Below the pieces are notes generated by a model. It searched no databases, was not told where the DNA came from, and saw nothing but the letters and a program-made list of their open reading frames with translations. The translations under genes were made by a program, and so were the position numbers. Positions 8,448-41,399 of a stretch of DNA of 64,000 bases are shown here, piece by piece; the first letter of the stretch is position 1, and the number at the start of each line of letters is the position of its first letter. Source of the DNA: Polyangiaceae bacterium (GTDB lineage Bacteria > Myxococcota_A > Polyangia > Polyangiales > Polyangiaceae); assembly GCA_044224495.1 (NCBI GenBank), contig JBGAKG010000005.1:236711-300710 (forward strand), in the 5' to 3' direction.

Positions 8448-10435
8448 TTCTTCGGCTTGACGAGCAGGTAGCCGACCATCTCGAGGTGGAGCGCCGAGCA
8501 GAACTCGGTGCAGTAGAACGGATAGGCACCCGGCATGTCGGCCTTGAACGAGATGTTCTCGTGCTTGCCGGGCTCGAGGCTCACGTTGACGTTGTAGAGG
8601 TTGACCTCGAAGCCGTGGACCTGGTCCTCGGCCTGCTCGAGGCTGGTGACGTGGATGTTGACGGTGTCGCCCTCGTCCACCTCGATTCGGTCCGGCGTGA
8701 AGTGGCTACGGACCGCCGTCATGTAGACGTCGACCACGTTGCCGTTGCGGACGATCCGCTCCTTGCCGCCCTCGGTCGCGTTCGGGTCCTTCTGGTCGGT
8801 GATGACGTTCGTCCCCGGCGCGTACATCTTCAGCGGCTTCAGCTTGTCGGTCTTGATCATCTGCGAGTAGTGGGGCTCGCCGAAGCCGATCGGCATGTCG
8901 TAGAGGAGCCGCATCTTCTCGCCCGTGATGTCGATGAGCTGGAAGTTCTGCGGGTAGAGCGGACCGACGCCGGTGAAGCGGTCGATCGACATCTTGTTCA
9001 TTGCGACGACGTACTTGCCGTCGGGGCTGACGGTGTCGCCCTCGGCCGCGAGGATGTGTCCGATGTTGTAGTGGACCGAGATCTTCTCGATCTGCTTCAT
9101 GTCCTTGACGCTCCACTTCACGACCTTGCTCTCGAGGAAGAGCGAGGTGTAGCCGTTCATCTGGTCGTCGAAGACCGTGTGGAGCGGGCCGAGGCCGAGC
9201 TCGACCTGACCGCGGATCGAATCCTTGAAGGGGAGGATCGGGATGCCGTAGGCGTCCTTGCCCTCGAACTTCTTCTGCGCGATGAGGTCCTTGACCTTGG
9301 AGAACTCGTACAGCGTCGCGTGCGTGTCGAGCTTGCCGCCGACGACGACCGCGGTGCCGTCCGGCGTCACGTCGCAGCCGTGCGGGCTCTTCGGCTCGCC
9401 GATGAGCGTGAGGACGCCCTCTTCGCCGCTCACCGCGAGCGGGAGGACCTTCATCCCCTTGATCGTGACGGCCTTGCCGGCGTTCACGAGCTCCTCGGCT
9501 TTGCGCCAGTTGATGACGTGGAGGTAGTCCATGTCGTTCTGGGAGGCGCCGCTCTCGATCGCCGGCTTGCCCTCGAGCGTGCCGCCGATCGCCATCTCGG
9601 TGTTGAACGAGTTGATGAACACCCAACCGTCCGAGACGAGCTTGCCCGCGTCGGCGAGATCCTGCGTGTACGGCGGGAGCTCGACGCCGAAGCTCTTCTC
9701 CGGATCGATCCGCTTCTTCGCGCGGTCGAACTTCCAGAACATGGCGAGCCCGCGCCACTTCTCCTTGTACTGCTCGATCGGCACGTACTCGCGCCCGAGC
9801 GGCGACGGGTACTGCGTCGTCTCGATCACGTAGTCGGTGTTCGGCGTCACGAACGCGCCGCCGTGGTCGCTCGCGACGAGCGGGTTGGCGACGATCTGCT
9901 TCGTGACGAAGTCCTCGAGATCGACGACCGCGACGCGCGCGTTCGCCTTGTCGTTCACGAAGAGGAACTGGCCGTCGTAGTCACCCTTCGTCTCGGAGAG
10001 GTTCGGGTGGTGAACGTCGGCCCACGTGATTTTGTGGTTTCCCTGCGCACCTCCGGCGATGACCTTGTCCGTCTCGCCGCCGTAGCCGTAGCCCTGCCAC
10101 GGCTCGGGGGTGAACACGCCGATGAGCTTCAAGAGGCGCATCGACGGGACACCGATCGCGGCGACCTGGCCGGAGTGGCCGCCCGACGCGAAGATCATGT
10201 AGTCGTCCTTCTTGCCGGTCGGGACGTAGGTCTTGAGCGCCCCTTCGACGTCGGCCTCGGTGAGACCGCGGGCCGCCATCAAGTCCTTGATGTTGGCCGA
10301 CGCGCCGAGGTTCGAGCTCCCGCCTTGCTGTTCCTTCGCCTGTTGCTCTGCCTTGTTCGTGCACGACGCCCCGGCGACGGTCCCCGCGCCGATCACGATG
10401 AGCGCCAGCGCTCCTCGTTTCCACCAAGAACCCAT
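8444..10435 (-). CDS. nosZ: nitrous-oxide reductase NosZ, Sec-dependent (clade II) type
   Basis: 663 aa from ATG 10435 (GGAGG 7 nt upstream); N-terminal Sec/lipoprotein-like signal MGSWWKRGALALIVIGAGTVAGASC with no twin-Arg motif; seven-bladed propeller region; C-terminal cupredoxin CuA site '...YCTEFCSALHLEM'; no C-terminal cytochrome domain. Confidence 0.9.
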   Translation of the reverse strand: MGSWWKRGALALIVIGAGTVAGASCTNKAEQQAKEQQGGSSNLGASANIKDLMAARGLTEADVEGALKTYVPTGKKDDYMIFASGGHSGQVAAIGVPSMRLLKLIGVFTPEPWQGYGYGGETDKVIAGGAQGNHKITWADVHHPNLSETKGDYDGQFLFVNDKANARVAVVDLEDFVTKQIVANPLVASDHGGAFVTPNTDYVIETTQYPSPLGREYVPIEQYKEKWRGLAMFWKFDRAKKRIDPEKSFGVELPPYTQDLADAGKLVSDGWVFINSFNTEMAIGGTLEGKPAIESGASQNDMDYLHVINWRKAEELVNAGKAVTIKGMKVLPLAVSGEEGVLTLIGEPKSPHGCDVTPDGTAVVVGGKLDTHATLYEFSKVKDLIAQKKFEGKDAYGIPILPFKDSIRGQVELGLGPLHTVFDDQMNGYTSLFLESKVVKWSVKDMKQIEKISVHYNIGHILAAEGDTVSPDGKYVVAMNKMSIDRFTGVGPLYPQNFQLIDITGEKMRLLYDMPIGFGEPHYSQMIKTDKLKPLKMYAPGTNVITDQKDPNATEGGKERIVRNGNVVDVYMTAVRSHFTPDRIEVDEGDTVNIHVTSLEQAEDQVHGFEVNLYNVNVSLEPGKHENISFKADMPGAYPFYCTEFCSALHLEMVGYLLVKPKK

Positions 10436-20774: not shown

Positions 20775-20828
20775 CGCGCTCAGGATAATGCCTGTGCCGG
20801 CGGGAGCGGATGACTGCGCAAACAGAAA

Positions 20829-20865
20829 CGGGAACGGAACTTTCGTTCTCGTTCCCGTTTGGTCC
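20829..20865 (-). terminator. near-perfect nested hairpin (AAACGGGAACGGAAC-TTTC-GTTCTCGTTCCCGTTT) immediately 3' of tRNA-Leu, followed by U-rich tract on minus strand
   Basis: ~15-bp stem, 4-nt loop; on the minus-strand transcript followed by CUGUUUG; position fits intrinsic terminator of tRNA gene. Confidence 0.55.
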
Positions 20866-20881
20866 GTGAAGCGAACCTCTG

Positions 20882-29505: not shown

Positions 29506-30582
29506 TCATGTGTCGCGGCTTCCGAGGGCCGTCACGGCCCCCAGGAGCACGGCTTTCCCTTCCGCTTGGAGCGGTAGACGCATGAAGCGCTCCCGCGATT
29601 CGGCGAGGAGCACGTCGATGCGTGCCTCGACCCGAGCCTTCGCCCCACCCTCGATCATCCGACTCACGATCGCCTGCACCTCGGCGTCGGGCGCGTCGGC
29701 CACGCCGAGCACGCGCGGCAGGAGGCGCTGCGCCTCGCGGTCGCCGTCGAGCTCGGAAACGAGCGCGGTGCGCTTGCCCTCCCGCAGATCGCTGGAGGCG
29801 GGCTTGCCGGTCTTCGCCGGATCGCCGAACGTGCCGAGCAGGTCGTCGCGGAGCTGGAAGGCGATCCCGAGCGGATCGGCGGCCTCCGAGAGGCCGCTCA
29901 TCACGTCGTGCGAGGCGCCTGCGAGCGCAGCGCCGACGAGGAGCGGACCGCGCACGGTGTAGCTGCCGGTCTTCAAGCGATGCATCGCCTCCACCGCCTG
30001 CGCCGTGGTCGCCGCGTGGCGCACGTCGAGGATCTGGCCGAGCACGACGTCCGTCTGAGCGCGGACGAACTCGCGGACCGCCTCGATCAAGCGCGGCGCC
30101 GGCACGTTCATCTTCACGAGCAGGTCCAGCGCGAGGCTCGACCCGAAGTCGCCGGCGAGCACCGCCCCGGCGTCCCCCGCCATCGTCGAGCCGAACTTGC
30201 CGCGGAGGAGCGCGTGCGCGCTCGGCCCACCGCGCCGAACCTCGTCGCCATCCATCCAGTCGTCGTGGATGAGCAAGTAGGCCTGGAGCACCTCGAGCGC
30301 GACGCCCGCGTCCACCACCGCGACGCTGCCGCCGGTGCCGCCGCAGGCCTCGTACGCCGCGGCGAGGAGCACCGCGCGGAGGCGCTTGCCACCGCGGACG
30401 GCGAGCGAGCGGAGCGCATCGATCACCTCGGCGACGTCGGGGGCGAGGACCCGCGCTTCGGCGACGCGTTGGTCCAGCACCTCGGCCAGGCGCCGATCCA
30501 CGTCACGCCGAACCACGCGCGCGTAGTCGGCGAAGGCTTCGTTGGCGGTCTTGGGTGCGCTCTCGGTCGTCGTTGCCATCAT
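29506..30582 (-). CDS. polyprenyl diphosphate synthase (FPP/GGPP synthase family)
   Basis: 358 aa from ATG 30582 (GGGAGG RBS); FARM 'LIHDDWMDGDEVRRG' and SARM 'FQLRDDLLG' motifs. Confidence 0.8.
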   Translation of the reverse strand: MMATTTESAPKTANEAFADYARVVRRDVDRRLAEVLDQRVAEARVLAPDVAEVIDALRSLAVRGGKRLRAVLLAAAYEACGGTGGSVAVVDAGVALEVLQAYLLIHDDWMDGDEVRRGGPSAHALLRGKFGSTMAGDAGAVLAGDFGSSLALDLLVKMNVPAPRLIEAVREFVRAQTDVVLGQILDVRHAATTAQAVEAMHRLKTGSYTVRGPLLVGAALAGASHDVMSGLSEAADPLGIAFQLRDDLLGTFGDPAKTGKPASSDLREGKRTALVSELDGDREAQRLLPRVLGVADAPDAEVQAIVSRMIEGGAKARVEARIDVLLAESRERFMRLPLQAEGKAVLLGAVTALGSRDT

Positions 30583-30840
30583 TGGGGGCCTCCCGGCGAT
30601 GGATGCCGGTGGGGCGGCATTCCACCGCAGACCACGAGAGCTTTCGACGACGCTGAACGAATTTGCACGATTTGAGTCTCGGTGGTCGGTCGCCAAAAAG
30701 GCGGGCCCCATATACCAGAATCCGGGCCCCGGTTGAGGACGAACGGCCAAAACGGTGGGCAACCAGGGACGGTTCCTGCTATCAGCGCGAGGTTAGGAAC
30801 CAGCCCGCGGCGTGTCAACCAATGTTCGCCCGGCTTTTTC

Positions 30841-30875
30841 CTGAAAAATTCAGTAGTTTCACTTTTTGTTGAAAC
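30841..30875. promoter_or_regulatory. AT-rich paired palindromes CTGAAAAATTCAG and GTTTCACTTTTTGTTGAAAC directly upstream of the type 2 IDI gene in the divergent mevalonate promoter region
   Basis: Two inverted repeats in an unusually AT-rich 60-bp patch of a ~70% GC genome, 20-50 nt upstream of ATG 30894. Confidence 0.35.
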
Positions 30876-30893
30876 GTCTGAATCGGGAGCCTC

Positions 30894-31976
30894 ATGGCAA
30901 ACATCGGAAAACGAAAGGCGGATCACATCGCCCTGTGCGCGACGGGCGACGTGGGGTTCCGCCACCAGGGCACCCTGCTCGGTGACGTCCGCCTCGTCCA
31001 TGACGCCCTCCCCGACATGCACGCCGACGACGTGGACACCCGTGTTCAGGCCTTCGGCAAGGTCCTCCGCGCTCCCATCATCATCGCATCGATGACGGGC
31101 GGGACGGACGAGGCGACCCAGATCAACCGGGGCCTCGCGAAGATCGCCGAAGAGCGCGGCTACGGCTTCGGGCTCGGGTCCCAGCGCGCGATGCTGGTGC
31201 GCCCCGAGACGCGCCCCACGTTCCTGGTCCGCGACGTGCTCCCGACCGGCGTCCTCCTCGGGAACCTCGGTTTGGTCCAGGCGCGGACGATGAAGACGAG
31301 CGAGGTCCAGGGCCTCGTGGACGAGGTTCAAGCCGACGCGCTCTGCATCCACCTCAACCCGGCGATGGAGCTGGTCCAGCCCGAGGGCGATCGCGATTTC
31401 CGGGACGGCGTGGACACCATCGGGCGCCTGGTGAAGGAGCTCACCGTCCCCGTGATCGTGAAGGAGACCGGCTGCGGCATCTCGCCGTCGGTCGGCGCGC
31501 GGGTCTGCGCGGTAGGTGCAGAATACATCGATGTGTCCGGCGCGGGTGGGACGTCTTGGGTCGGCGTCGAGACGAAGCGCGCGGAAGAGGTCGGGGACGC
31601 GCGCTCGCGCGGCCTCGGAGAGGCGCTTTGGGACTGGGGCGTCCCCACCGCGGTGAGCGTCGCAACCCTGGCGCGCGGGCGTGGGACGCGCGGGGCGAAG
31701 ATCATCGCGACCGGCGGCATGTCGACCGGCTTGGACGCCGCGCGCGCGATCGCGCTCGGGGCGCACATGGTGGGCATTGCCCGGCCGGCGCTCAAGGCAT
31801 TCCACGCGGGCGGGCGCGAGGGCGCGATTGCCTTCTTCGAGGCCTTCGAGGCCGAGCTCCGGGCGGCAATGCTGCTCACGGGCTCGCGGACCGTGGCCGA
31901 CCTGCGCCGCGCGAGGAAAGTCGTGACCGGCGAGCTGAGGCTGTGGATCGACGACCTCGACGACGTCGGGGCGTGA
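30894..31976 (+). CDS. fni: type 2 isopentenyl-diphosphate delta-isomerase (FMN-dependent)
   Basis: 360 aa; IDI-2 hallmarks (IIIASMTGG, NLG, VIVKETGCGIS, GGTSW). Confidence 0.85.
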   Translation: MANIGKRKADHIALCATGDVGFRHQGTLLGDVRLVHDALPDMHADDVDTRVQAFGKVLRAPIIIASMTGGTDEATQINRGLAKIAEERGYGFGLGSQRAMLVRPETRPTFLVRDVLPTGVLLGNLGLVQARTMKTSEVQGLVDEVQADALCIHLNPAMELVQPEGDRDFRDGVDTIGRLVKELTVPVIVKETGCGISPSVGARVCAVGAEYIDVSGAGGTSWVGVETKRAEEVGDARSRGLGEALWDWGVPTAVSVATLARGRGTRGAKIIATGGMSTGLDAARAIALGAHMVGIARPALKAFHAGGREGAIAFFEAFEAELRAAMLLTGSRTVADLRRARKVVTGELRLWIDDLDDVGA

Positions 31977-32001
31977 TAGCTTCGGCGTTCGGCGTTAGTC
32001 G

Positions 32002-32931
32002 GTGAAGCCGGGAGTGGGCATGACGGGCAAGCGAGCGACGAAGAAGAAGACGGTAGCCAAGCCGGTAGCCAAGCCCACTCGGGTCGTACGACCGCCGAGC
32101 AAGCACCCCAGCAAACACCCCGTGGGGCCGGCGAAGATCGAGGCCGTCCAGAGCGTGTTCCGGCGCAGCGCGGCGCTCGTCGAGGAGCTGATCGCGGACG
32201 TCGGGAAGCTCCGCGAGCAGAAGCTCGCGCTCGAGGCCGAAAACGCCTCCCTCCGCACCCACCTCGCCAAGAACGCGGCGATGAAGGAGCTGCTCGACAA
32301 GATTCGCCTCCTCGAGCGCGAGAAGAGCCTGCTCCTCTCGCACGTGCACGAGGCCGAGGCGGCGTCGACGCGCTACTCCGCCCGCTACGGCGAGATGGAG
32401 GAAGAGCTCTCCAAGCTCGCGAACGTCTACATCGCGAGCTACCAGCTGCACTCGACGCTCCGGCTCGGGCGCGTGGTTCGGCACCTCAAGGAGCTGCTCC
32501 AGCAGCTGGTCGGCGCCCGCGCGTATGGCATCTACTGGGCGGACGGCTCGCGCAAGCTGCACCTCATCGCGAGCGAGACCATCGACATGAAGAAGCACGC
32601 GGTGCTCGCGCCCGGAGGGGACGATCCGGCCTCGCCCGTGGTCGAGCGCGCGTACCTGACCGGAGTGCCGACGATCGCGGAGGGGGACCTCCCCCACCAC
32701 GGCGAGGGCAGCCCGGCCGCGGTCGTGCCGATGCACTTCGACGACCGCGTCGTCGGCATCATCGTCGTCTACTCGGTGTTCGAGCAGAAGACGCGTTTTT
32801 TGCCCGTCGACTTCGAACTCTTCAAGATGCTCGGCGCGCATGCCGCGAGCGCCCTGACCGGGGCGCTCCTCTACGCCGCCCCGGGCGCGAAAATCCCAGG
32901 CCCGGAGGCGTTCCGTGATCTCGATCGCTGA
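32002..32931 (+). CDS. coiled-coil + GAF domain protein
   Basis: 309 aa; Lys-rich N-terminus, leucine-zipper-like coiled coil (LREQKLALEAENASLRTHL), C-terminal GAF-like fold; alt. start ATG 32020. Confidence 0.55.
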   Translation: MKPGVGMTGKRATKKKTVAKPVAKPTRVVRPPSKHPSKHPVGPAKIEAVQSVFRRSAALVEELIADVGKLREQKLALEAENASLRTHLAKNAAMKELLDKIRLLEREKSLLLSHVHEAEAASTRYSARYGEMEEELSKLANVYIASYQLHSTLRLGRVVRHLKELLQQLVGARAYGIYWADGSRKLHLIASETIDMKKHAVLAPGGDDPASPVVERAYLTGVPTIAEGDLPHHGEGSPAAVVPMHFDDRVVGIIVVYSVFEQKTRFLPVDFELFKMLGAHAASALTGALLYAAPGAKIPGPEAFRDLDR

Positions 32932-32976
32932 ACGAAATTCCGTTTCCGACCGTATGGACCCGCAGGAAAGCAAGCG

Positions 32977-33360
32977 ATGAGCGCCGAGTACACGTGCCTC
33001 GTAGTCGAAGACTCCCCGATGATGCGGCAGCTTCTCGTCTTTGCCCTCTCTCGGGTGAAGAACCTGAAGGTGACCGAAGCCGACGACGGCGTGGATGGGC
33101 TGCGCAAGCTCGCGGGCGCCAAGTTCGACCTGATCCTGACCGACATCAACATGCCGATCATGGACGGGCTGAAGCTGGTGAAGCGGGTGCGTTCGGATCC
33201 GATGCACAAGGACACCCCGATCATCATCATCACGACCGAGGGTTCGACCGAAGACCGGACCCGCGCGCTGCAGCTCGGGGCGAACGCGTACATCACGAAG
33301 CCGATTCAGGCGCCGCAGGTCATCGCGAAGGTCAAGGAGCTGCTGAAGATCGAGGGTTGA
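32977..33360 (+). CDS. single-domain response regulator (CheY-like)
   Basis: 127 aa; REC motifs (VVEDS, D..LTDINMP, KP). Confidence 0.8.
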   Translation: MSAEYTCLVVEDSPMMRQLLVFALSRVKNLKVTEADDGVDGLRKLAGAKFDLILTDINMPIMDGLKLVKRVRSDPMHKDTPIIIITTEGSTEDRTRALQLGANAYITKPIQAPQVIAKVKELLKIEG

Positions 33361-33375
33361 GGGGCCGGAGCGGGA

Positions 33376-34839
33376 TCAGGGCGCCGTCAGCTCCGCCGCC
33401 TCGATCAGCTTCGCTACCGTCGGGGTCTCGCCGACCCTCTCGAGGAGGACGTCCGCCGGCGTCTTTCGCGCGGCCACCAGCGCTTCGAGGTGCTTCAGGT
33501 AGGCGCGCTCGTCGGCGCCCTGCGCGTTCTTTCGCCCGCGGCGCTCGAGGCCCCCGCTCGCGATGGTGAGGATCTTCTCCGCCGCTTCGGCGGCCGTCGC
33601 TCCGCGGAACGGCGTGCGGATGCCGTGCTCCCACACCTTGCTTCGCAGGGCGTTCACCTCGGCGAAGGTCCACGACTCCGTCAGCGCTTCGAGCTCCGAC
33701 AGGGCCTTCGCGTCGTAGAAGAGACCCGCGTAGAGCGCCGGCAGCGCGCACGTCATCGCGAAGCCTTGCGCGTCGGCGCTGCGGATCTCGATCGTGCGCT
33801 TCAACCGAACGTCCGGGAAGAGCGTGTTCACGTGGAGCTGCCAGTCCGCCGGCGTCGCGCGGTGGCCCTGGAAGCCCGACTCGAGGAAGCTCCGGAACGT
33901 CTGGCCGGTGTTCGCGACGATCTCGCCGTCGCGCTTGAAGAGGAACATCGGCACGTCGAGCGCCCAGTCGATGTAGTCGCCCACCGTCGCCGAGGCGGAG
34001 AACATCCGCTCGAGCAGGCCGGCGCGGTCGTTGTCGACGTCCAGCCAGACGCGGCAGCGCATCGAGAGGAGCGGCGCGCGCTTTCCCTCGACCCAGGGGC
34101 TGTTGGCGAACATCGCCGACGTGACCGGCGCGATGCGCTGCGCGACGCGGACCTTCTGCACCGCGTCCGCTTCGCTCGTGTAGTCGAGGTTCGCCTGCAC
34201 GGTGGACGTGCGGAGCATCATGTCGAGCGCGTGGGCTCCGCGCGTCGGCAGGTACTTCCGCATGATGCCGTAGCGCCCCTTGGGGACCCACTCGAGGTCC
34301 TCGCGCCGCGCGAGCGGGTGGAACCCGAGGCTCAGCCAGCGAACGCCGAGCTCTTTCGACGCCGGTGCGATCTCGCGGACGTGGTCCGCGAGCTCCGCCG
34401 CGATCGCGTGCACGTCGTCGGCGGGGGCTCCGCTCAGCTCGAGCTGGCAGCCGGGCTCGAGGGTGACGCTCGCGTCGTTCTTCTTCAGCGCGATGAGGGG
34501 ACCGCCGGCCTTCTCGAAATCGGGCGTCCAGCCGTGATCGTCCCGGAGCGACGCGAGGACGCGAAGGACGCCCTTCTCGTAGCCGATGGGCGCGCCGGTC
34601 GCCTCGACGATGCCGAATTTCTCCGCCTCGGGGCCGATGCGGGACGGCCCGCCGTGAGGGGTGAAAGGGACCAGGAGCTCGTCGCGTGAGCGGATGGGCG
34701 CTGCGGAATCAGGGGTCACGAGGCCTCGACGCGGAGCATTAGCACGGGTCTTGGATGGTCCAAAGTGAAGGAACGTTGCGCTAACCTGCGCGTTCGGTCT
34801 CGTCCCATGCTCCGCGAAGCGGCCCATTTCCTGCTCCAC
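33376..34839 (-). CDS. gshA: glutamate--cysteine ligase, plant/proteobacterial GSH1 type
   Basis: 487 aa ORF; strong similarity pattern to GCS2 family (EKFG.., HxN, ...); true start may be internal since first ~30 codons overlap divergent methyltransferase ORF. Confidence 0.7.
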   Translation of the reverse strand: MEQEMGRFAEHGTRPNAQVSATFLHFGPSKTRANAPRRGLVTPDSAAPIRSRDELLVPFTPHGGPSRIGPEAEKFGIVEATGAPIGYEKGVLRVLASLRDDHGWTPDFEKAGGPLIALKKNDASVTLEPGCQLELSGAPADDVHAIAAELADHVREIAPASKELGVRWLSLGFHPLARREDLEWVPKGRYGIMRKYLPTRGAHALDMMLRTSTVQANLDYTSEADAVQKVRVAQRIAPVTSAMFANSPWVEGKRAPLLSMRCRVWLDVDNDRAGLLERMFSASATVGDYIDWALDVPMFLFKRDGEIVANTGQTFRSFLESGFQGHRATPADWQLHVNTLFPDVRLKRTIEIRSADAQGFAMTCALPALYAGLFYDAKALSELEALTESWTFAEVNALRSKVWEHGIRTPFRGATAAEAAEKILTIASGGLERRGRKNAQGADERAYLKHLEALVAARKTPADVLLERVGETPTVAKLIEAAELTAP

Positions 34840-35478
34840 GCCCCCGGCACCCTGTGGCTGAAAGCCAAGCTGCCTCAGGACGAGCTCTACGACGTGCTGA
34901 TGGAGCGCGCGGAGTCACGCGGCCTCGGGGCCGCGCGCGCGCGGATGGCGACGGCGGTCGCCGACGGCGCGCGCGTCTTGGAGCTCGGGTGCGGCACCGG
35001 GATGCTCTTCCCCCACTACCGACCGGGGACCGACGTGACGGCGGTCGACCTCGACGAAGCCTTCCTGGAGCGCGCGAAGGCACGCGCAGCGAGCTCGCCC
35101 GCGAGCATCCAGGTCGCGCGCGCGGACGCGATGGCGCTCCCCTTCCCCGATGCGTCGTTCGACGAGGTCCTGATCTTCCTCGTCCTCTGCAGCATCCCGG
35201 ACGTGAAGCGAGCGCTCGCCGAGGTGCGCCGCGTACTTCGTCCGGGCGGAACGCTCCGCGCGTTCGAGCACGTGATCAGCGAGCGGCCGGTCGCAGCGCG
35301 AGCCATGCGAGCACTGGATCCACTCTGGCTCGCCGCGAACGGCCAGGGGTGTCACCTGGACCGAGACACCACGAGGGACGTGGAGCGGGCGGGATTCGCG
35401 TTGCAGAGCGTCGACAAGAGTCAGCTGTGGTCGCCGGGGCTGCCGGCGTTTCCGTTGCGGGAGATCACGGCCCGCTGA
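34807..35478 (+). CDS. class I SAM-dependent methyltransferase
   Basis: ATG 34807 chosen (ORF opens 34765); motif I 'VLELGCGTG', 'FDEVL' post-I, 'LRPGGTL'. Confidence 0.7.
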   Translation: MLREAAHFLLHAPGTLWLKAKLPQDELYDVLMERAESRGLGAARARMATAVADGARVLELGCGTGMLFPHYRPGTDVTAVDLDEAFLERAKARAASSPASIQVARADAMALPFPDASFDEVLIFLVLCSIPDVKRALAEVRRVLRPGGTLRAFEHVISERPVAARAMRALDPLWLAANGQGCHLDRDTTRDVERAGFALQSVDKSQLWSPGLPAFPLREITAR

Positions 35479-35489
35479 AGAGAAAAGCC

Positions 35490-35652
35490 GAACAGGGAAC
35501 ACGGAACGGGAATGGGAATGCGGAATGGTCGGCGCGGGAGCCTCCGCCAGATCCGGGACCGGTTTTGAGAATGGGAACGGAGAAGGAGAACGCGGAATCC
35601 TCGTTCTCACTCCGCGCTCCGCGTTCCCATTCCCCTTCCGTGTTCCCTGTTC
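35490..35652. repeat. long imperfect inverted repeat (~36-nt arms, 34/36 match) enclosing an ~89-nt spacer with a second hairpin and a partial third arm copy; structured element between convergent genes
   Basis: Left arm GAACAGGGAACACGGAACGGGAATGGGAATGCGGA (35490-35525) vs right arm TCCGCGTTCCCATTCCCCTTCCGTGTTCCCTGTTC (35618-35652); inner hairpin GAGAACGCGGAATCCTCGTTCTC; flanked by CTTTTCTCTTC (minus) and TTCGTCTTTTGG (plus). Confidence 0.7.
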
Positions 35653-35663
35653 GTCTTTTGGTC

Positions 35664-38495
35664 TCAGGCGAGCACTTTCTTCACACTCGGCCGCACCGTC
35701 TTCTTCCGATCGAAGATCCGAAGCCGCCGCACGAGCAAGTCGAGCAGGTACACCGCGATGGCCGCCCCGATGAACCACGACCACAGGTCCTGGTGGTAGG
35801 TGATGGTCTGCCCCGCCGGATCGAAGATCTCTTTGGGGAGCGGATCCATCTTGCCGCCCGTCACGAGCGCCGCCTGCGACAGCGTCTCCTTGTCCGGCGT
35901 GAACGCCAGGTACTCGCGCGGGTACGGGTTCGACACGTGACCGAAGCTCTCGGCGACAGTCGCGCTCTTGAAGCCGCCCTTCCCGTCCTCCACCGCTTTT
36001 TCCAGCGACGCGTGGAGGACGAACGAACCGTAGTGGTCCATCGGGAAGTCGACCTCGTAGCGGCCCGGCGCCGTCTGCTTCATCGAGATCTTCCGCGTCT
36101 CCCCCGCCACACCGTTGGTGCTCGCGGCCTTGATCTCGAGCTTCGCGTCGAGCCCGTTCTGGAACTTGTCGTCGCCGCCGATCGCGTCGATCGATGCCTT
36201 GAGGTGACCCGTCGCCGGGTCGATCTCGGCGCGCATGTCGTACTGCTGGCGCTTCTTCTGGCGCATGTGCTCGCGCACGAGCTGGCCCCAGAACTGCCCG
36301 TAGACGGGCCACTTGAGCCAATCCACCGCCCAGAGGTTCTTCACGTCGCTCGTCCACGCCAGCGACCAGCCGAGGCCGACGTGCCAGCGCGCGAGGATCG
36401 GCTCGCCGATCTCCGACTCCAGGATCTCCTGCGCGGGCGGCGGCTTCATCTTCGTCGCCACGTAGCCGTGCAGGTAGGGTGACGAGCCCATGTCGATGCC
36501 ACGGAGGAAGTCCGCGGGAGCGACGACGCGCGGCTGGAAGTACTCCTCGACCGCCGCGCTGCGGCTGACCATCTCGGTCTCGCGCGTGAACACGCGCGGG
36601 AGCTGGGTCGGGTCGAGCACCTTGTAGAAGCGCCCGCCGCCCAGGTCCGAGATCATGCGGAGCAGGTTCTCGTCGACGCCGCTCCCGAGGCCGACGGTGG
36701 AGACCGTGATGCCCTCCGAGACCATCGCCTGCGTGAGGTCGCGGATGGTGCCCTGCGGCGCCTGCCCGTCCGTGAGGAGGATGACGTGCTTCTTGCGCGC
36801 GCGCGTCACGGTGAGCGACTGGTACGCCGCGTCGAGCGCGGGCTGGATGTCCGTGCCGCCGCCGGGCTGAATGCGCGCGATGTCGCCCTGGATGCGCGCG
36901 CGGTACTTCGCGCTCGTCATCTTCACGACCTTCGTCGGGACGGAGTCGAACGCGATGACCTCGAGCAGGTCCTCGCCATCGAGCGTGTCGGCCGTCGCCT
37001 TGGCGGCGGCCTTCGCCATCTCGAGCGGTTGGCCCGACATCGAGCCGGAGCGGTCGATGACGAGATCCATCGCGACGCCGGGCTCGTCCTTGCGCTTCTC
37101 CGAGTCCATGCGGACCGGCAGGATCCGCTCGATGGTGGAGTTGTACCAACCACCGAGGCCGTAGCCGCTCTCGCCGCCGGCGAACAGGAATCCACCGCCG
37201 AGATCGCGAACGTAGGCTTCGACCGCGTCCTGCTGCGTGAGCGAGACAGCCTCGGCCGGGGCGTCGGACAGGATGACGAAGTCGTAGCGCTCGAGCTCGC
37301 GGATGCTCGACGGGAGCTCGCGCGGGCCGCGCACGTCGACCTCGAGCTCCTGCGCCGAGAGCGCGCTCGCGAGGTAGGTCGCGCGCGCCGGGTTGCCCTC
37401 GACGTAGAGGACGGCCGGCTTCCCGGGCACCGCCGCCGTGACCGCGTAGCGGTTGTTCTCGGGGAAGCGGTCCTCCTTGATGTCGGACAGGTCGAGCTCG
37501 TAGGTGACCTCGCCCGCGACGCGAACGACGCTCTTGAAGGTGACGTCGTTGTCGCCCGCGACGAGGTCGAGCGTGCGCACGCCGTCGAGGCCGTTGATGG
37601 CTTCGCCCTGCTTCAGCACGGCCTTCGCCTGCTGGGCGCGGCTCGAGAAGATGTTCGCGTGGATCTCGAACGGCTCGCCCACGCGGACCTTGTCGGGCAC
37701 GCGCAGCTCGCGGAGAGCGACCTCGCCCGGCACCGGCTTCTTGTAGGGCACCGTGTAGAGCTTCACGCCGAAGTCGTGCGCGCGGTTGGCCTCGGCGAGG
37801 AGGTCACCGTCGGTCTGGACGCCGTCGGAGTAGATGACCGCCCGGCGCAGGTAGCCGGCGGGGTACAGGCCGTACGCCAGCTGGAGCGCGGAGCCGATGT
37901 CGGTCGCCGCGTCCATGCCGCGCTTCTTCCCCGGCGGGAGCGGCTTCTGCGCCTCGTCCGCGGCGAGCACGTCGTGGCGCTTGAGCTCCGGCACCGTGCG
38001 CGTCGTGTCGTCCATCGGGACGACCTGCGGCCGCTGCGAGAACGTGATGACGCGGATCATCGCGTCCTGCGGCTTCTCGTCGAGCGCGTGTTGGATGTCG
38101 GCCCGAGCGTCCTCGATCGCGGCGTCGGGGACCGACTCCGAGACGTCGACGACGTAGACCGTACATATCTTCTGCGTCGTCGCCGTTCGCGCCAGGCGCG
38201 AGAGACCGAGCGCGACCAACGCGACGAAGACGACGCGGAGGAACACCGAGATCACGCGCTGCGGCCACGGCAGGTCCGCGAGCGAGCGCCCGATGACCCA
38301 GAGGAAGTAGGGCGCGAGCAGCGCGATGCCGAGCATGCGCGGCGCGAGCAGCTCGTAGTCCTTGTCGCCGTGCTTCCACGCGAGTGTGGGGCCCGCGTAC
38401 CAGACGTACTTGGTGTAGGCCCAGAGCCCAATCGCGCCGACCGTCAGGATCAGCGCGCCCCAAGCGATGCGTTTCCAGAGCTTCGTCTCGGGCAT
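35664..38495 (-). CDS. double vWA-domain membrane protein (Bat-like operon, large subunit)
   Basis: 943 aa; N-terminal TM helices, two vWA/MIDAS regions (DVSESV.., DRSGSMSG..), C-terminal TM. Confidence 0.75.
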   Translation of the reverse strand: MPETKLWKRIAWGALILTVGAIGLWAYTKYVWYAGPTLAWKHGDKDYELLAPRMLGIALLAPYFLWVIGRSLADLPWPQRVISVFLRVVFVALVALGLSRLARTATTQKICTVYVVDVSESVPDAAIEDARADIQHALDEKPQDAMIRVITFSQRPQVVPMDDTTRTVPELKRHDVLAADEAQKPLPPGKKRGMDAATDIGSALQLAYGLYPAGYLRRAVIYSDGVQTDGDLLAEANRAHDFGVKLYTVPYKKPVPGEVALRELRVPDKVRVGEPFEIHANIFSSRAQQAKAVLKQGEAINGLDGVRTLDLVAGDNDVTFKSVVRVAGEVTYELDLSDIKEDRFPENNRYAVTAAVPGKPAVLYVEGNPARATYLASALSAQELEVDVRGPRELPSSIRELERYDFVILSDAPAEAVSLTQQDAVEAYVRDLGGGFLFAGGESGYGLGGWYNSTIERILPVRMDSEKRKDEPGVAMDLVIDRSGSMSGQPLEMAKAAAKATADTLDGEDLLEVIAFDSVPTKVVKMTSAKYRARIQGDIARIQPGGGTDIQPALDAAYQSLTVTRARKKHVILLTDGQAPQGTIRDLTQAMVSEGITVSTVGLGSGVDENLLRMISDLGGGRFYKVLDPTQLPRVFTRETEMVSRSAAVEEYFQPRVVAPADFLRGIDMGSSPYLHGYVATKMKPPPAQEILESEIGEPILARWHVGLGWSLAWTSDVKNLWAVDWLKWPVYGQFWGQLVREHMRQKKRQQYDMRAEIDPATGHLKASIDAIGGDDKFQNGLDAKLEIKAASTNGVAGETRKISMKQTAPGRYEVDFPMDHYGSFVLHASLEKAVEDGKGGFKSATVAESFGHVSNPYPREYLAFTPDKETLSQAALVTGGKMDPLPKEIFDPAGQTITYHQDLWSWFIGAAIAVYLLDLLVRRLRIFDRKKTVRPSVKKVLA

Positions 38496-38498
38496 GGG

Positions 38499-40481
38499 CT
38501 AGACCGTGATCCTTCGGTGGTAGGTGGCCCACTCGACGACGGTGATGAGGATGACGGCGAGCAAGAGGTAGATCCAGACCTCCCGCCGCACGCCGACGTG
38601 GAAGCCTTCGACCGGCGTCGCGTCCTTGCCGTCCACGGTGAGCTTCTCCGCGGGAGCGATCGCGCTCTCGCCGTCGTCGAGGAGGTTCGCCGCGAAGCGG
38701 AGCGAGCTCCCGGCTTGGGTGAGCGCGGCGTCCCCCGTCGGCTCGCCCGGACTCGCACTGGCGACCGGTGCGGGCGGGGCTACCCCCTCGCTCGTCGGTG
38801 CGCCGGTCGGCAACGTCAGATCGTAGAAGCCCGCCCGCTGCCCGAGGAACACGGCGCGCCCTTCGTGCACGGGGATCGGCTGCTTCGCTCCGGCCGGCGT
38901 GGTGAGGGTCGCCGCGGTGGTCTGCGAGCCGACCGGGATGCGCCAAACGTCACCGGTGCGGAAGGACGAGATGTAGCTCGTGTCCTCGTCCGTGAACCAG
39001 TTGACGATGTTGAGGAGGAGCACCGGCCACGCGACGCGAAGCGGGAGGTCGCTGTCGCGGACGTCGAAGCCCATCGCGACGAACTTCTGCCCGTTGCGCA
39101 CGCCGCTCACGAGGAGCGGGCCGTCGAACGACGCGCCGATGACCTTGTCCTGCGGCTCGGGCTTCAGCTTGTGGCCGCTCCCGATGTTGACCTGGTCGAG
39201 CGCGGTGAAGCGCACGATCGGGTGCTTGCGCTCGATTTTGTCGAAGCCGGGCGACTCGATCGCGCCTTCGACCTTCACCGGCGACCCGGGGCCGCGCGGG
39301 TCGAGGTACAGCGCCGCCGCTTTGGGCATCTGCGCCGGCGTGACCTGATCGAAGATGACGACGTCGAACTTCACCTGGCCCGCGGCGTACTTGTTCGCGT
39401 AGTCCGCCGGCGTCGCGTTGACGACATCGAGGTACTCGTCGAGCAGGAGCGCCGCATCGAGGTAGTTGTTCCCGAGCGAGACGACGAGCACCTTCGCGCG
39501 GCGCCGCTCGGGCAGGAGCGCGTAGGCGTGGTCGTCGGCGGGGAGATCGTCTTTCGTGTCGCCGATCGGACCGAGCTTCGCCTCGAGCGTCCGGCTCGCG
39601 CCGGAGAGGTTCGGGTAGAAGCGCGGGAGCTTCTCGCCCGGCTGCAAGCGGAGCTTCGTCAGATCGACGAGCATCCCGTCGCCGAGGAGCGAGAGCTCGA
39701 TGTCGGCGACCTCGGTCCCGGTGTTGGTGACCTCGAGCATCACCTCGTAGCGGCTCTTGTCGAGCGGGTACCTTCGGACCGAGAACTGCGTGATCGCGAC
39801 GTTGTCCTTCGCCTTGCCGATTGGCAGGTACGAGAGCTTCGCGTCGCCGAGGTGCACGGCGCCGGCCGCGTCGGTCGCTTCGCCGAGATCGCCGTCGGAC
39901 ACGACGACGATCTCGCCGTTGTCGACGTTCTTGAGCGTGTCGGTCGCGAAGCGCAGCGCGCGCGGGAAGTCGGCGCGGGCGTCGGTCGGCTGCACGGAGT
40001 CCACCGCGCGCTCGAGCTCCGACGTGTCCCCGCTCATCGGTCCGAGCGGCGTGATCGCGGCGTCCATCTGGGCGACGAGCATGCGGTCCGCACCGCCCAT
40101 GCCGCGGATGAGCGCCTTGACCTCGTCCTTCGCGTGATCGAGGCGGGTCGGCGTGACGTCGGTCGCCTGCATCGAGGCGCTCGCGTCGATGATCACGACG
40201 ACGTTGCGGCCCTTGATCAGGGTGGCGGCAGCGCGCGGATCCCCGAGCGCGAGGCAGAGCAGCGCGAGGAGCGCGAGCTGGAGAAGCAAGGAGAGGAGGC
40301 GCTTGAGCTTCGAGAAGAGGCTCGTCGCCTCTTTGTCGCGGAGGATCTTCTGCCAGAGCGGCGAGAACGGCACCGCGACGACGCGACGCCGGAGCTTCAG
40401 GATGTAGAGCCCGATCATCGCGGCGCCGATGACGCCGAAGATGCCCGCGAGCTGCGCGAACGAGAGGCCGGCGAGGATCAA
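38499..40481 (-). CDS. BatA-like vWA domain membrane protein
   Basis: 660 aa; N-terminal TM pair, vWA MIDAS 'DASASM', C-terminal TM anchor. Confidence 0.75.
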   Translation of the reverse strand: MILAGLSFAQLAGIFGVIGAAMIGLYILKLRRRVVAVPFSPLWQKILRDKEATSLFSKLKRLLSLLLQLALLALLCLALGDPRAAATLIKGRNVVVIIDASASMQATDVTPTRLDHAKDEVKALIRGMGGADRMLVAQMDAAITPLGPMSGDTSELERAVDSVQPTDARADFPRALRFATDTLKNVDNGEIVVVSDGDLGEATDAAGAVHLGDAKLSYLPIGKAKDNVAITQFSVRRYPLDKSRYEVMLEVTNTGTEVADIELSLLGDGMLVDLTKLRLQPGEKLPRFYPNLSGASRTLEAKLGPIGDTKDDLPADDHAYALLPERRRAKVLVVSLGNNYLDAALLLDEYLDVVNATPADYANKYAAGQVKFDVVIFDQVTPAQMPKAAALYLDPRGPGSPVKVEGAIESPGFDKIERKHPIVRFTALDQVNIGSGHKLKPEPQDKVIGASFDGPLLVSGVRNGQKFVAMGFDVRDSDLPLRVAWPVLLLNIVNWFTDEDTSYISSFRTGDVWRIPVGSQTTAATLTTPAGAKQPIPVHEGRAVFLGQRAGFYDLTLPTGAPTSEGVAPPAPVASASPGEPTGDAALTQAGSSLRFAANLLDDGESAIAPAEKLTVDGKDATPVEGFHVGVRREVWIYLLLAVILITVVEWATYHRRITV

Positions 40482-41399
40482 CGGAGGAACCCTCCGCGGC
40501 GGAAGACGCGCAGGATGAGCTCGTCGAAGGGCACCGTCACGTCGGCCTGGATGTACGGCACCATGCGCGACGTGCAGAACTTCTCCACGTCCTTCAAGTA
40601 GGTCCCGTAGACCTCTTCGAAGCGCTCGAGCACCTTCGCCGTGATCGTGACCTCGCGCTCGTCACCCGTCTCGCAGTCGTAGAGCAGGATGTCGCCGGCG
40701 AGCTTGGGCTTCGCCTCGCGCTTGTCGGTGACGTGGATCACGAAGGGGTCGAACTTGTTGTAGCGGAGGACGTTGATGCCCTTCTCGAAGCCCTTCGGAT
40801 CGTAGAGATCGCTGATGAGCACGACCATGCCGCGGCGCTTGTGGCGCGCGACGAAGGACTTGAGCGCGTCCTCGAGATCGGTGATGCCCTGCGGCTCCAC
40901 CGTGCGGAGGAACCGGAACACCTTGAAGATGCGCGCCTTGCCGCGCGTCTCCGGCATGCGCCCCATCATCTGATCGCTGGTGGAGACGATGCAGACGCGA
41001 TCGAGGTTCGCGAGGCCCACGTAGCCGAGCGCAGCCGCGAGGCGCTTCGCGTGACGGAGCTTCTCCCCGTCGCCGAAGGCCATCGAGCCCGACGCGTCGA
41101 CGACGAAGTAGATGGCGAGGTCCTCTTCTTCCTCGAACAGGCGAAGCAGGAGGCGACCGAACTTCTGGTAGACGTTCCAGTCGAGGTAACGGAAGTCGTC
41201 GCCCGGCTGGTAGTCGCGGTGGTCGGCGAACTCGATGCCGCTACCGGTCTTCTTCGTGCGGCGCTCCGCGCGCATGCGCCCGGCGAAGACCTTGCGACTG
41301 ACCATCGCGAGGTAGTCGAGCTTGCGCTGGAAGTCGTCGTCGAAGAGGTCGTCGCTTTCCTTCGCTACGGCGCTCTTCTTCGCGCCTCCGGTTAGGAAA

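Follow-up and report, generated by a model that had tools for sequence, protein, structure and literature searches.

Between two convergent genes in the 64-kb stretch of Polyangiaceae DNA analyzed here (the window), we observed a long inverted repeat that is probably a recent, lineage-specific insertion of a small, dispersed, palindromic, non-coding repeat family of the MITE/REPIN/BIME-like kind in soil myxobacteria, most likely serving as a portable terminator for both directions of transcription and as a 3'-end hairpin. The structure of the element, the kinship of its arms to arms at other loci, the empty orthologous sites in relatives and the position next to gene ends can all be seen directly. 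A unit of this family would spread by copy-and-paste to the 3' ends of genes.

Of the 185 nt that separate the stops of the two genes (35479-35663), almost all belong to the element. The 163-bp inverted repeat described by the first-pass annotation is present, and its features are as follows.

34807..35478, + strand: gene for a class I SAM-dependent methyltransferase (Pfam Methyltransf_11/25; 223 aa plus stop), with its TGA 4 nt before the element
35483..35524, + strand: left arm (inverted repeat I1), consisting of an A-tract (AAAAG), CC and the purine-rich hexamer array GAACAGGGAACACGGAACGGGAATGGGAATGCGGA
35525..35566, no strand assigned: GC-rich spacer segment, with no likeness to the spacers of other family members
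35567..35598, + strand: degenerate third (inner) copy of the arm, GAGAATGGGAACGGAGAAGGAGAACGCGGAAT (direct repeats D2 and D3, 72-77%; inverted repeats I2-I5)
35586..35608, + strand: inner 7-bp hairpin, GAGAACG / CGGAATCCT / CGTTCTC, present in the MFE and centroid folds of both strands
35618..35659, + strand: right arm (inverted repeat I1), a pyrimidine-rich array with the end GTCTTTT
35664..38495, − strand: gene for a 943-aa VWA-domain membrane protein (Pfam VWA, orthologues, synteny), with its TGA 4 nt after the element

When the A/T tracts are included, the arms are 42 nt each (35483-35524 and 35618-35659) and complementary at 39 of the 42 positions (93%), enclosing a branched interior of 93 nt in a unit of ~177 nt; without the tracts, they are 35 nt (35490-35524 and 35618-35652), of which 33 are complementary. 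These values replace the ~36-nt arms with 34/36 complementarity and the 89-nt spacer reported earlier, although the inverted repeat itself stands. The inner hairpin, the degenerate third arm copy and the T-rich tracts flanking the arms on both strands, all pointed out in the first-pass annotation, were recovered as well, the tracts being read from the sequence as an A-tract on one side and a T-tract on the other (left flank, AGAGAAAAG; right flank, TCTTTTGG). The inner arm copy could alternatively pair with 35598-35638, and its nhmmer match to the family is weak. The GC-rich spacer segment gave no informative match with blastn-short. The arms are ~80% purine and have no self-complementarity.

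The window has a GC content of 70.5%, and the best matches of the flanking proteins are from Polyangiaceae, Labilithrix and Pendulispora-type Myxococcota. The methyltransferase is 100% identical to a 223-aa protein (P0121), and its synteny is kept in relatives; the VWA gene is the last of a MoxR/DUF58/BatA-like operon. The sole open reading frame that crosses the element is an 82-aa frame overlapping the 3' end of the VWA gene.

The predicted fold of the element is very stable on both strands (MFE, −117.3 kcal/mol for + and −114.5 kcal/mol for −; z-scores, −8.4 and −8.7, respectively), and none of 200 shuffled sequences folded as well. Nothing comparable was found elsewhere in the 64-kb window, where the next best inverted repeats were GC-rich matches of at most 24 nt in coding regions. 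Likewise, the 24-mer core of the arm has just two matches in the window, which are the two arms themselves (0.00 expected).

Does this arm occur elsewhere? The same type of arm (AAAAGACGAA…GGGAAYGGGAAYG) was found at three other, unrelated 3'-end loci (L017, L015 and L022), and at all four loci the distance from the copy to a stop codon is below ~20 nt (0-19 nt). The arms are arranged as doublets in the window, L017 and L022, and as singlets in L015 and at a second site in L022. In L017, a full hairpin is located 10 nt downstream of the stop of a thioredoxin-rhodanese gene and has the same lead-in and terminus as the window element (AAAAAGACGAAC); on its transcribed strand, the stem is not followed by a U-tract. 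The L015 copy is a solo arm, 6 nt past the stop of a Ser/Thr kinase gene in a 40-nt gap before a lipoprotein-like ORF, and it folds no better than its shuffles (z = −0.6). The L022 copy (1216-1328), located by blastn-short across the compared loci, is a compact 113-nt hairpin (z = −6.7) accompanied by a second copy of its right arm at 1552-1599. It does not occupy the gap of the window element; it lies in the convergent gap between a response-regulator gene and GCS2, a different gap of the same neighborhood, which measures 402 nt in L022 and is empty in the window (15 nt), L018 (16 nt) and L031 (7 nt).

Between the hairpin and the duplicated right arm, L022 also carries a second, unrelated inverted repeat (1336-1538; 36-nt arms, 97% complementary, with a 131-nt spacer). 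The outer ends of this repeat copy the 3' end of the response-regulator gene (GATCGAGGGG) and its spacer has a copy of the GCS2 3' end, which suggests a fold-back rearrangement of local sequence.

The arms at the four loci share a common build, in which an A-tract and the terminus (A)AAAAGACGAA are followed by an array of 6-7-nt GGGAAY/GGAAC units. In an alignment of eight arms, the GGGAAYGGGAAYG core is fully conserved except for two Y positions that alternate between C and T, the AAAAGACGAA terminus is kept in most arms, and the arms vary in length by whole 6-7-nt units. The left arm of the window element is alignable with the seven other arms and is identical over 31 nt to the arms of L015 and L017, and the reverse complement of its right arm starts with AAAAGACGAAC, the conserved family terminus; the terminus AAAAGACGAA is identical in the L017 and L022 arms. 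On the other hand, the interiors are unrelated between copies and are often mosaic, with extra or solo copies of the arm. Furthermore, the left arms across loci are more alike than each is to its own right arm; copying of whole units fits this pattern better than independent local fold-backs do, and the comparison suggests that whole units were copied.

The family appears only sparsely in sequence collections. We used the 20-mer ACACGGAASGGGAATGGGAA as the query for database scans. Among 185,579 representative genomes, a set in which the genome of the window is not included, it retrieved no family member, giving three single chance matches in low-GC MAGs. Among 241 million metagenome records, it gave five matches, and in two of these, on high-GC contigs, identity to the arm of the window runs on to 31 nt. 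A search with an arm profile revealed no further copy in the 270 kb compared and one copy in the 64-kb window, and ~200 kb of other Polyangiaceae-like sequence held no family copy apart from that in L022. Plasmids gave no blastn match to the element, the scans of viral contigs returned nothing or chance matches in low-GC contigs, and a search of six-frame translations of the arms against a protein database yielded one candidate with short shared words and nothing that scored. The family is either rare or very variable. A non-exhaustive look for an autonomous element or transposase found neither, and a Pfam scan of 10 uncalled ORFs detected PfkB and NAD kinase domains only and no transposase domain.

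The orthologous site was also compared in relatives. The closest relative is represented by L018, a JGI metagenome contig whose VWA gene is 96.9% identical to that of the window at the amino acid level (91.7% at the nucleotide level) and whose methyltransferase is 87% identical, with the same gene order, GCS2(−)/MTase(+)/VWA(−). In L018, the stops of the methyltransferase and VWA genes are 6 nt apart (CCTTCT), and three independent assemblies (L018, L019 and L020, two of them from Logan) agree on this, so that a junction of 185 nt in the window faces one of 6 nt in all three. A blastn alignment of the window with L018 extends collinearly over 20.6 kb and consists of two HSPs, one ending at window position 35474 and the other starting at 35664. 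Since the HSPs break solely at the element, the element is the only large indel in 20.6 kb and, judged from this alignment, is a lineage-specific gain or loss of ~179 nt. The recurrence of the arms at three other loci with differing gene contexts, together with this orthologous site that lacks the element, supports the earlier suggestion of a REP/MITE-like repeat. No target-site direct repeat was recognizable at the window, L017 or L022 junctions, for which the empty-site references are 8-30% diverged.

More distant relatives show other states of the same junction. Eight contigs from differing samples (L022-L029; methyltransferase 70% identical) have a 22-nt gap, identical in all of them (L022:3670-3691 and its equivalents in L023-L029), which forms a compact bidirectional terminator, gAGAAAAtgaACCGCCagggCGGCGGTTTCTCtca, with the stem and loop ACCGCC-AGGG-CGGCGGT and the flanks GAGAAAA/TTTCTC. 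In another group, the order is methyltransferase, LprI-like gene and VWA, with a gap of 3 nt, and the older relatives have no methyltransferase at all. L001 (GCA_044222475.1, JBGANF010000141.1; VWA 93% identical) has an unlike inverted repeat of ~250 nt after the VWA stop (8848-9110), in which 5.2 tandem copies of the 18-nt unit ACGTGTACGTTCACGTGT (3 × 6) face 5.7 copies of the inverted 18-mer; a gene for an IS481-family transposase follows downstream (9184-10317). We considered the L001 repeat as a diverged member of the family and rejected this, as the two share only short words (CGAATACGG and GAACG) and nhmmer gave E > 1. The sister of L001, L034 (95% identity), is without that repeat and has a small hairpin only, with other genes downstream. 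Large hairpins at the VWA 3' end are young and lineage-specific and have been repeatedly gained or lost.

The slot between VWA and GCS2 (window 33376-38495) is itself hypervariable among the relatives compared (L001-L009 and L018-L034). It may be empty or hold a methyltransferase, a methyltransferase plus an LprI-like gene, an LprI-like gene alone, an IS481 element or a region of 60% GC; the last, at L034:3722-4694, encodes an S1-protease-like GDSGGP motif.

Could the hairpin be an artefact, such as a chimeric fold-back created during assembly? Short-read Logan contigs do stop inside the arms, both in the organism of the window (L021:2345-2379) and in the L022 lineage (L025:1-39), as would be seen with such an artefact; de Bruijn assemblies are, however, also expected to stop at inverted repeats. 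An artefact is extremely improbable, given the imperfect arms and asymmetric interior and given that other datasets contain related copies. In addition, the left junction and the first 35 nt of the element are seen again in L021 (Logan SRR28480385), a contig assembled independently from the same organism that stops at this point. Hairpins of this type interrupt de Bruijn assembly, and metagenome contigs will under-represent them.

Could such a hairpin terminate transcription from both sides? Transcription entering from either gene would produce a hairpin of 42 bp with a short U-tract behind it (CUUUUGG, + strand; CUUUUCUCUU, − strand). The element would then end transcripts of the methyltransferase gene and of the VWA operon alike, as a bidirectional terminator of the intrinsic type, and the hairpin would also protect the 3' ends of both mRNAs. 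At the DNA level, the tracts after the stem are TCTTTTGG (+) and CTTTTCTCTT (−), and the element stands 4 nt from both stops. Termination is its most likely activity, to judge from this position, the A/T tracts and the small bidirectional terminator with which other relatives fill this junction. A published precedent is offered by REPs, which, when located between convergent genes, are able to terminate transcription and stabilize mRNA (bioRxiv 10.64898/2026.03.23.713779). The symmetry of A-tract, stem and U-tract, the terminator of the L022 group, a tRNA-Leu terminator that shares words with the element and this REP precedent together support the inference of a terminator and stabilizer.

The terminator reading has weaknesses on several counts. 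Like intrinsic terminators, the element has a U-tract directly behind its stem where a transcription unit ends, but it does not have a short, GC-rich stem closed by a loop of 3-8 nt: with a stem of 42 bp at 55% GC and an interior of 93 nt, it is far outside the canonical terminator geometry, and the earlier description of the element as more elaborate than a simple bidirectional terminator was correct. The U-tracts are only 4-5 nt long, and their first four U residues can pair with the A-tract; L017 has no U-tract at all. A near-perfect RNA duplex of 42 bp could be a target of RNase III, whose cleavage would destabilize the mRNAs rather than protect them. Finally, the gap in L018 is 6 nt, and because this closest relative has nothing at the site, the element is dispensable. 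A terminator scan did not call the element as terminator-like.

In the same scan, the region 30000-41000 held four hairpins followed by a T-run where chance would give 4.8, and under strict settings the whole window yielded only two perfect stems of at least 7 bp with A- or T-rich flanks, so canonical terminators are scarce here. One canonical intrinsic terminator is that of tRNA-Leu(GAG) (20826-20866, − strand; GACCAAACGGGAACGAGAAC-gaaa-GTTCCGTTCCCGTTTCTGTTTG), which can also be written as GACCAAACGGGAACGAGAAC-gaaa-GTTCCGTTCCCG followed by UUUCUGUUUG, and which has a GACCAAA lead-in and GGGAAC words in common with the right arm of the element. The first-pass annotation had proposed that the two share a core. 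The shared GGGAAC words and the GACCAAA lead-in agree with this, whereas the exact GGGAACGGAAC occurs in the terminator only (20831-20841), the element carrying GGGAACACGGAAC and GGGAACGGAGAA in its place.

How else could the hairpin have arisen? It could be a plain terminator for both directions that arose at the site itself, as a single-copy hairpin grown from a short ancestral terminator at the convergent junction. The position between convergent stops, the A/T tracts, the small bidirectional terminator at this junction in the L022 group and the single copy in the window would all fit such a history. Single-copy occurrence without conservation in relatives had been named at the outset as the mark of a plain terminator, and the element is indeed single-copy in the window and not conserved in relatives; yet its sequence recurs elsewhere, with 31-nt stretches of arm and the AAAAGACGAA terminus at three unrelated loci, and the 6-nt gap of the closest relative contains no remnant of a hairpin. 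Growth in place is therefore unlikely. We also doubt that the hairpin was made de novo by replication errors without any transposition, through a fold-back or template-switch inverted duplication plus hexamer slippage at a fragile 3'-end hot spot. Slippage would readily give arms that are arrays of 6-7-nt units whose number varies between arms, and it would be in keeping with the different hexamer/18-mer-array repeat after the same VWA gene in L001, absent from its sister L034, and with the second inverted repeat of L022, at whose ends the 3' ends of local genes are copied. It leaves unexplained, however, why the same 31-nt arm stretch and terminus are present at unrelated loci and why the left arms match best across loci.

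A functional origin was weighed as well, namely that the element is a gene for a structured small RNA, or a protein-binding array of GGGAAY hexamers, kept for that function. The very stable fold and the retention of the GGGAAYGGGAAYG core in 8/8 arms, bar the C/T alternation at the two Y positions, would favor it. At the gathering thresholds of Rfam, however, tRNA-Leu(GAG) alone passes in the window and the element matches no family; with permissive E-values, it scores 13-39 bits against miRNA precursors of plants and animals, for which 60-168 bits are required, matches that arise because the element is a long hairpin and that amount to generic noise. The promoter scan found no promoter-like site adjoining the element, neither the closest relative nor any other orthologous site has the element, and the interiors are unrelated between copies. 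Covariation analysis of four arm pairs revealed only one compensatory pair, in a MAFFT alignment that the unit indels put out of register, and is not informative. We consider retention for such a function quite unlikely, and the discrete structured small RNA suggested in the first-pass annotation is not upheld. Elsewhere in the window, an 89-nt divergent intergenic region of 46% GC (30793-30881) is probably a shared promoter region.

A dispersed repeat insertion is, by comparison, a probable origin, and it admits a more speculative extension that we think has a small chance of being right: the GGGAAY-array arms and the AAAAGACGAA terminus may be the sites of a dedicated candidate protein, a transposase or a nucleic-acid-binding factor, that propagates bidirectional terminator cassettes beside stop codons in Polyangia, or the VWA 3' end may be a hairpin-generating hot spot. 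If so, the independent emergence, in the sister lineages of the window and L001, of two unlike hexamer-array hairpins behind one and the same VWA gene would mark a new hairpin-generating or hairpin-targeting mechanism and not ordinary MITE behavior.

The insertion reading places the element among known classes of palindromic repeats. Bacterial MITEs such as Correia/NEMIS and ERIC are non-coding and intergenic and can serve as terminators when transcribed. Like them, the elements of the present family are intergenic, non-coding units of 110-180 bp with terminal inverted repeats of ~40-48 nt and with filled and empty orthologous sites; the window element itself has terminal inverted repeats bounding a non-coding unit of less than 500 bp and has both filled and empty sites. 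They differ from MITEs in that the interiors are not conserved between copies, the arms gain and lose 6-7-nt units and no target-site duplication was found at the junctions inspected. We know of no parent IS with matching ends.

With the bidirectional intrinsic terminators of convergent gene pairs, the element shares the symmetric order of A-tract, stem and T-tract between two convergent stops, a compact example being present at the same junction in the L022 group. It differs from them by its 42-bp stem and 93-nt branched interior, against 5-14 bp and a 3-8-nt loop, by having sequence in common with other loci, and by U-tracts of only 4-5 nt. Another parallel is TRIT, a repeated, conserved, terminator-like hairpin of Mycobacterium tuberculosis that Czyz and colleagues reportedly described in 2014 as lying preferentially between convergent genes, with termination proposed as its role. 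The likeness lies in a repeated hairpin family, placement between convergent genes and a high-GC bacterium; the sequences are unrelated, and the hairpin of the present element is much longer and mosaic.

The REPIN consists of two inverted repeat copies and a spacer that form a long hairpin (Bertels & Rainey 2011, PMC3116915). Our element resembles REPINs and REP-BIMEs, including the BIMEs of E. coli, in being an inverted doublet with a spacer that folds into a long hairpin, in having singlets (L015 and the second right arm, R2, of L022) and mosaic clusters with extra arms, in its extragenic 3'-end site, and in being present or absent between close relatives. On the other hand, its arm is a hexamer array of ~80% purine and is not itself a short palindrome as a REP unit is, it has no GTAG-type head, and no RAYT transposase was seen in the sequence covered. 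The family also seems low-copy or rare, compared with hundreds of REPINs per genome, and the rarity of the 20-mer argues against a high copy number. Consequently, we class the element as belonging to a known kind of repeat but to a new family within it: more than a one-off terminator, it is an ordinary palindromic repeat of intergenic regions, apparently present at low copy number.

Three other identities were considered and rejected. Published intrastrand triplex motifs (PIT/BoxC) are different sequences, and the arms here are only ~80% purine. An integron attC site does not fit, as the ends do not match RYYYAAC/GTTRRRY and the methyltransferase is syntenic in relatives that are without the element. 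A retron msr-msd, of which myxobacterial msDNAs are ~162 nt, would have an adjacent reverse-transcriptase ORF; there is none, and there is no Rfam match.

Our literature search retrieved no work on MITEs of myxobacteria and none on the mapping of Myxococcus terminators, and a broader search found nothing specific to myxobacteria. For Polyangia, the soil myxobacteria with large genomes, descriptions of repeat families and terminators are essentially lacking. The practical value of the family is modest: its profile could be used for annotation, and the element is a candidate terminator part for myxobacterial engineering. Inserted hairpins would also account for breaks between contigs in short-read assemblies at such sites. 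The finding would amount to a new mechanism only if a dedicated mobilizing or binding protein exists; as a portable hairpin that inserts at gene ends, the element would represent one way for such genomes to gain or lose 3'-end signals.
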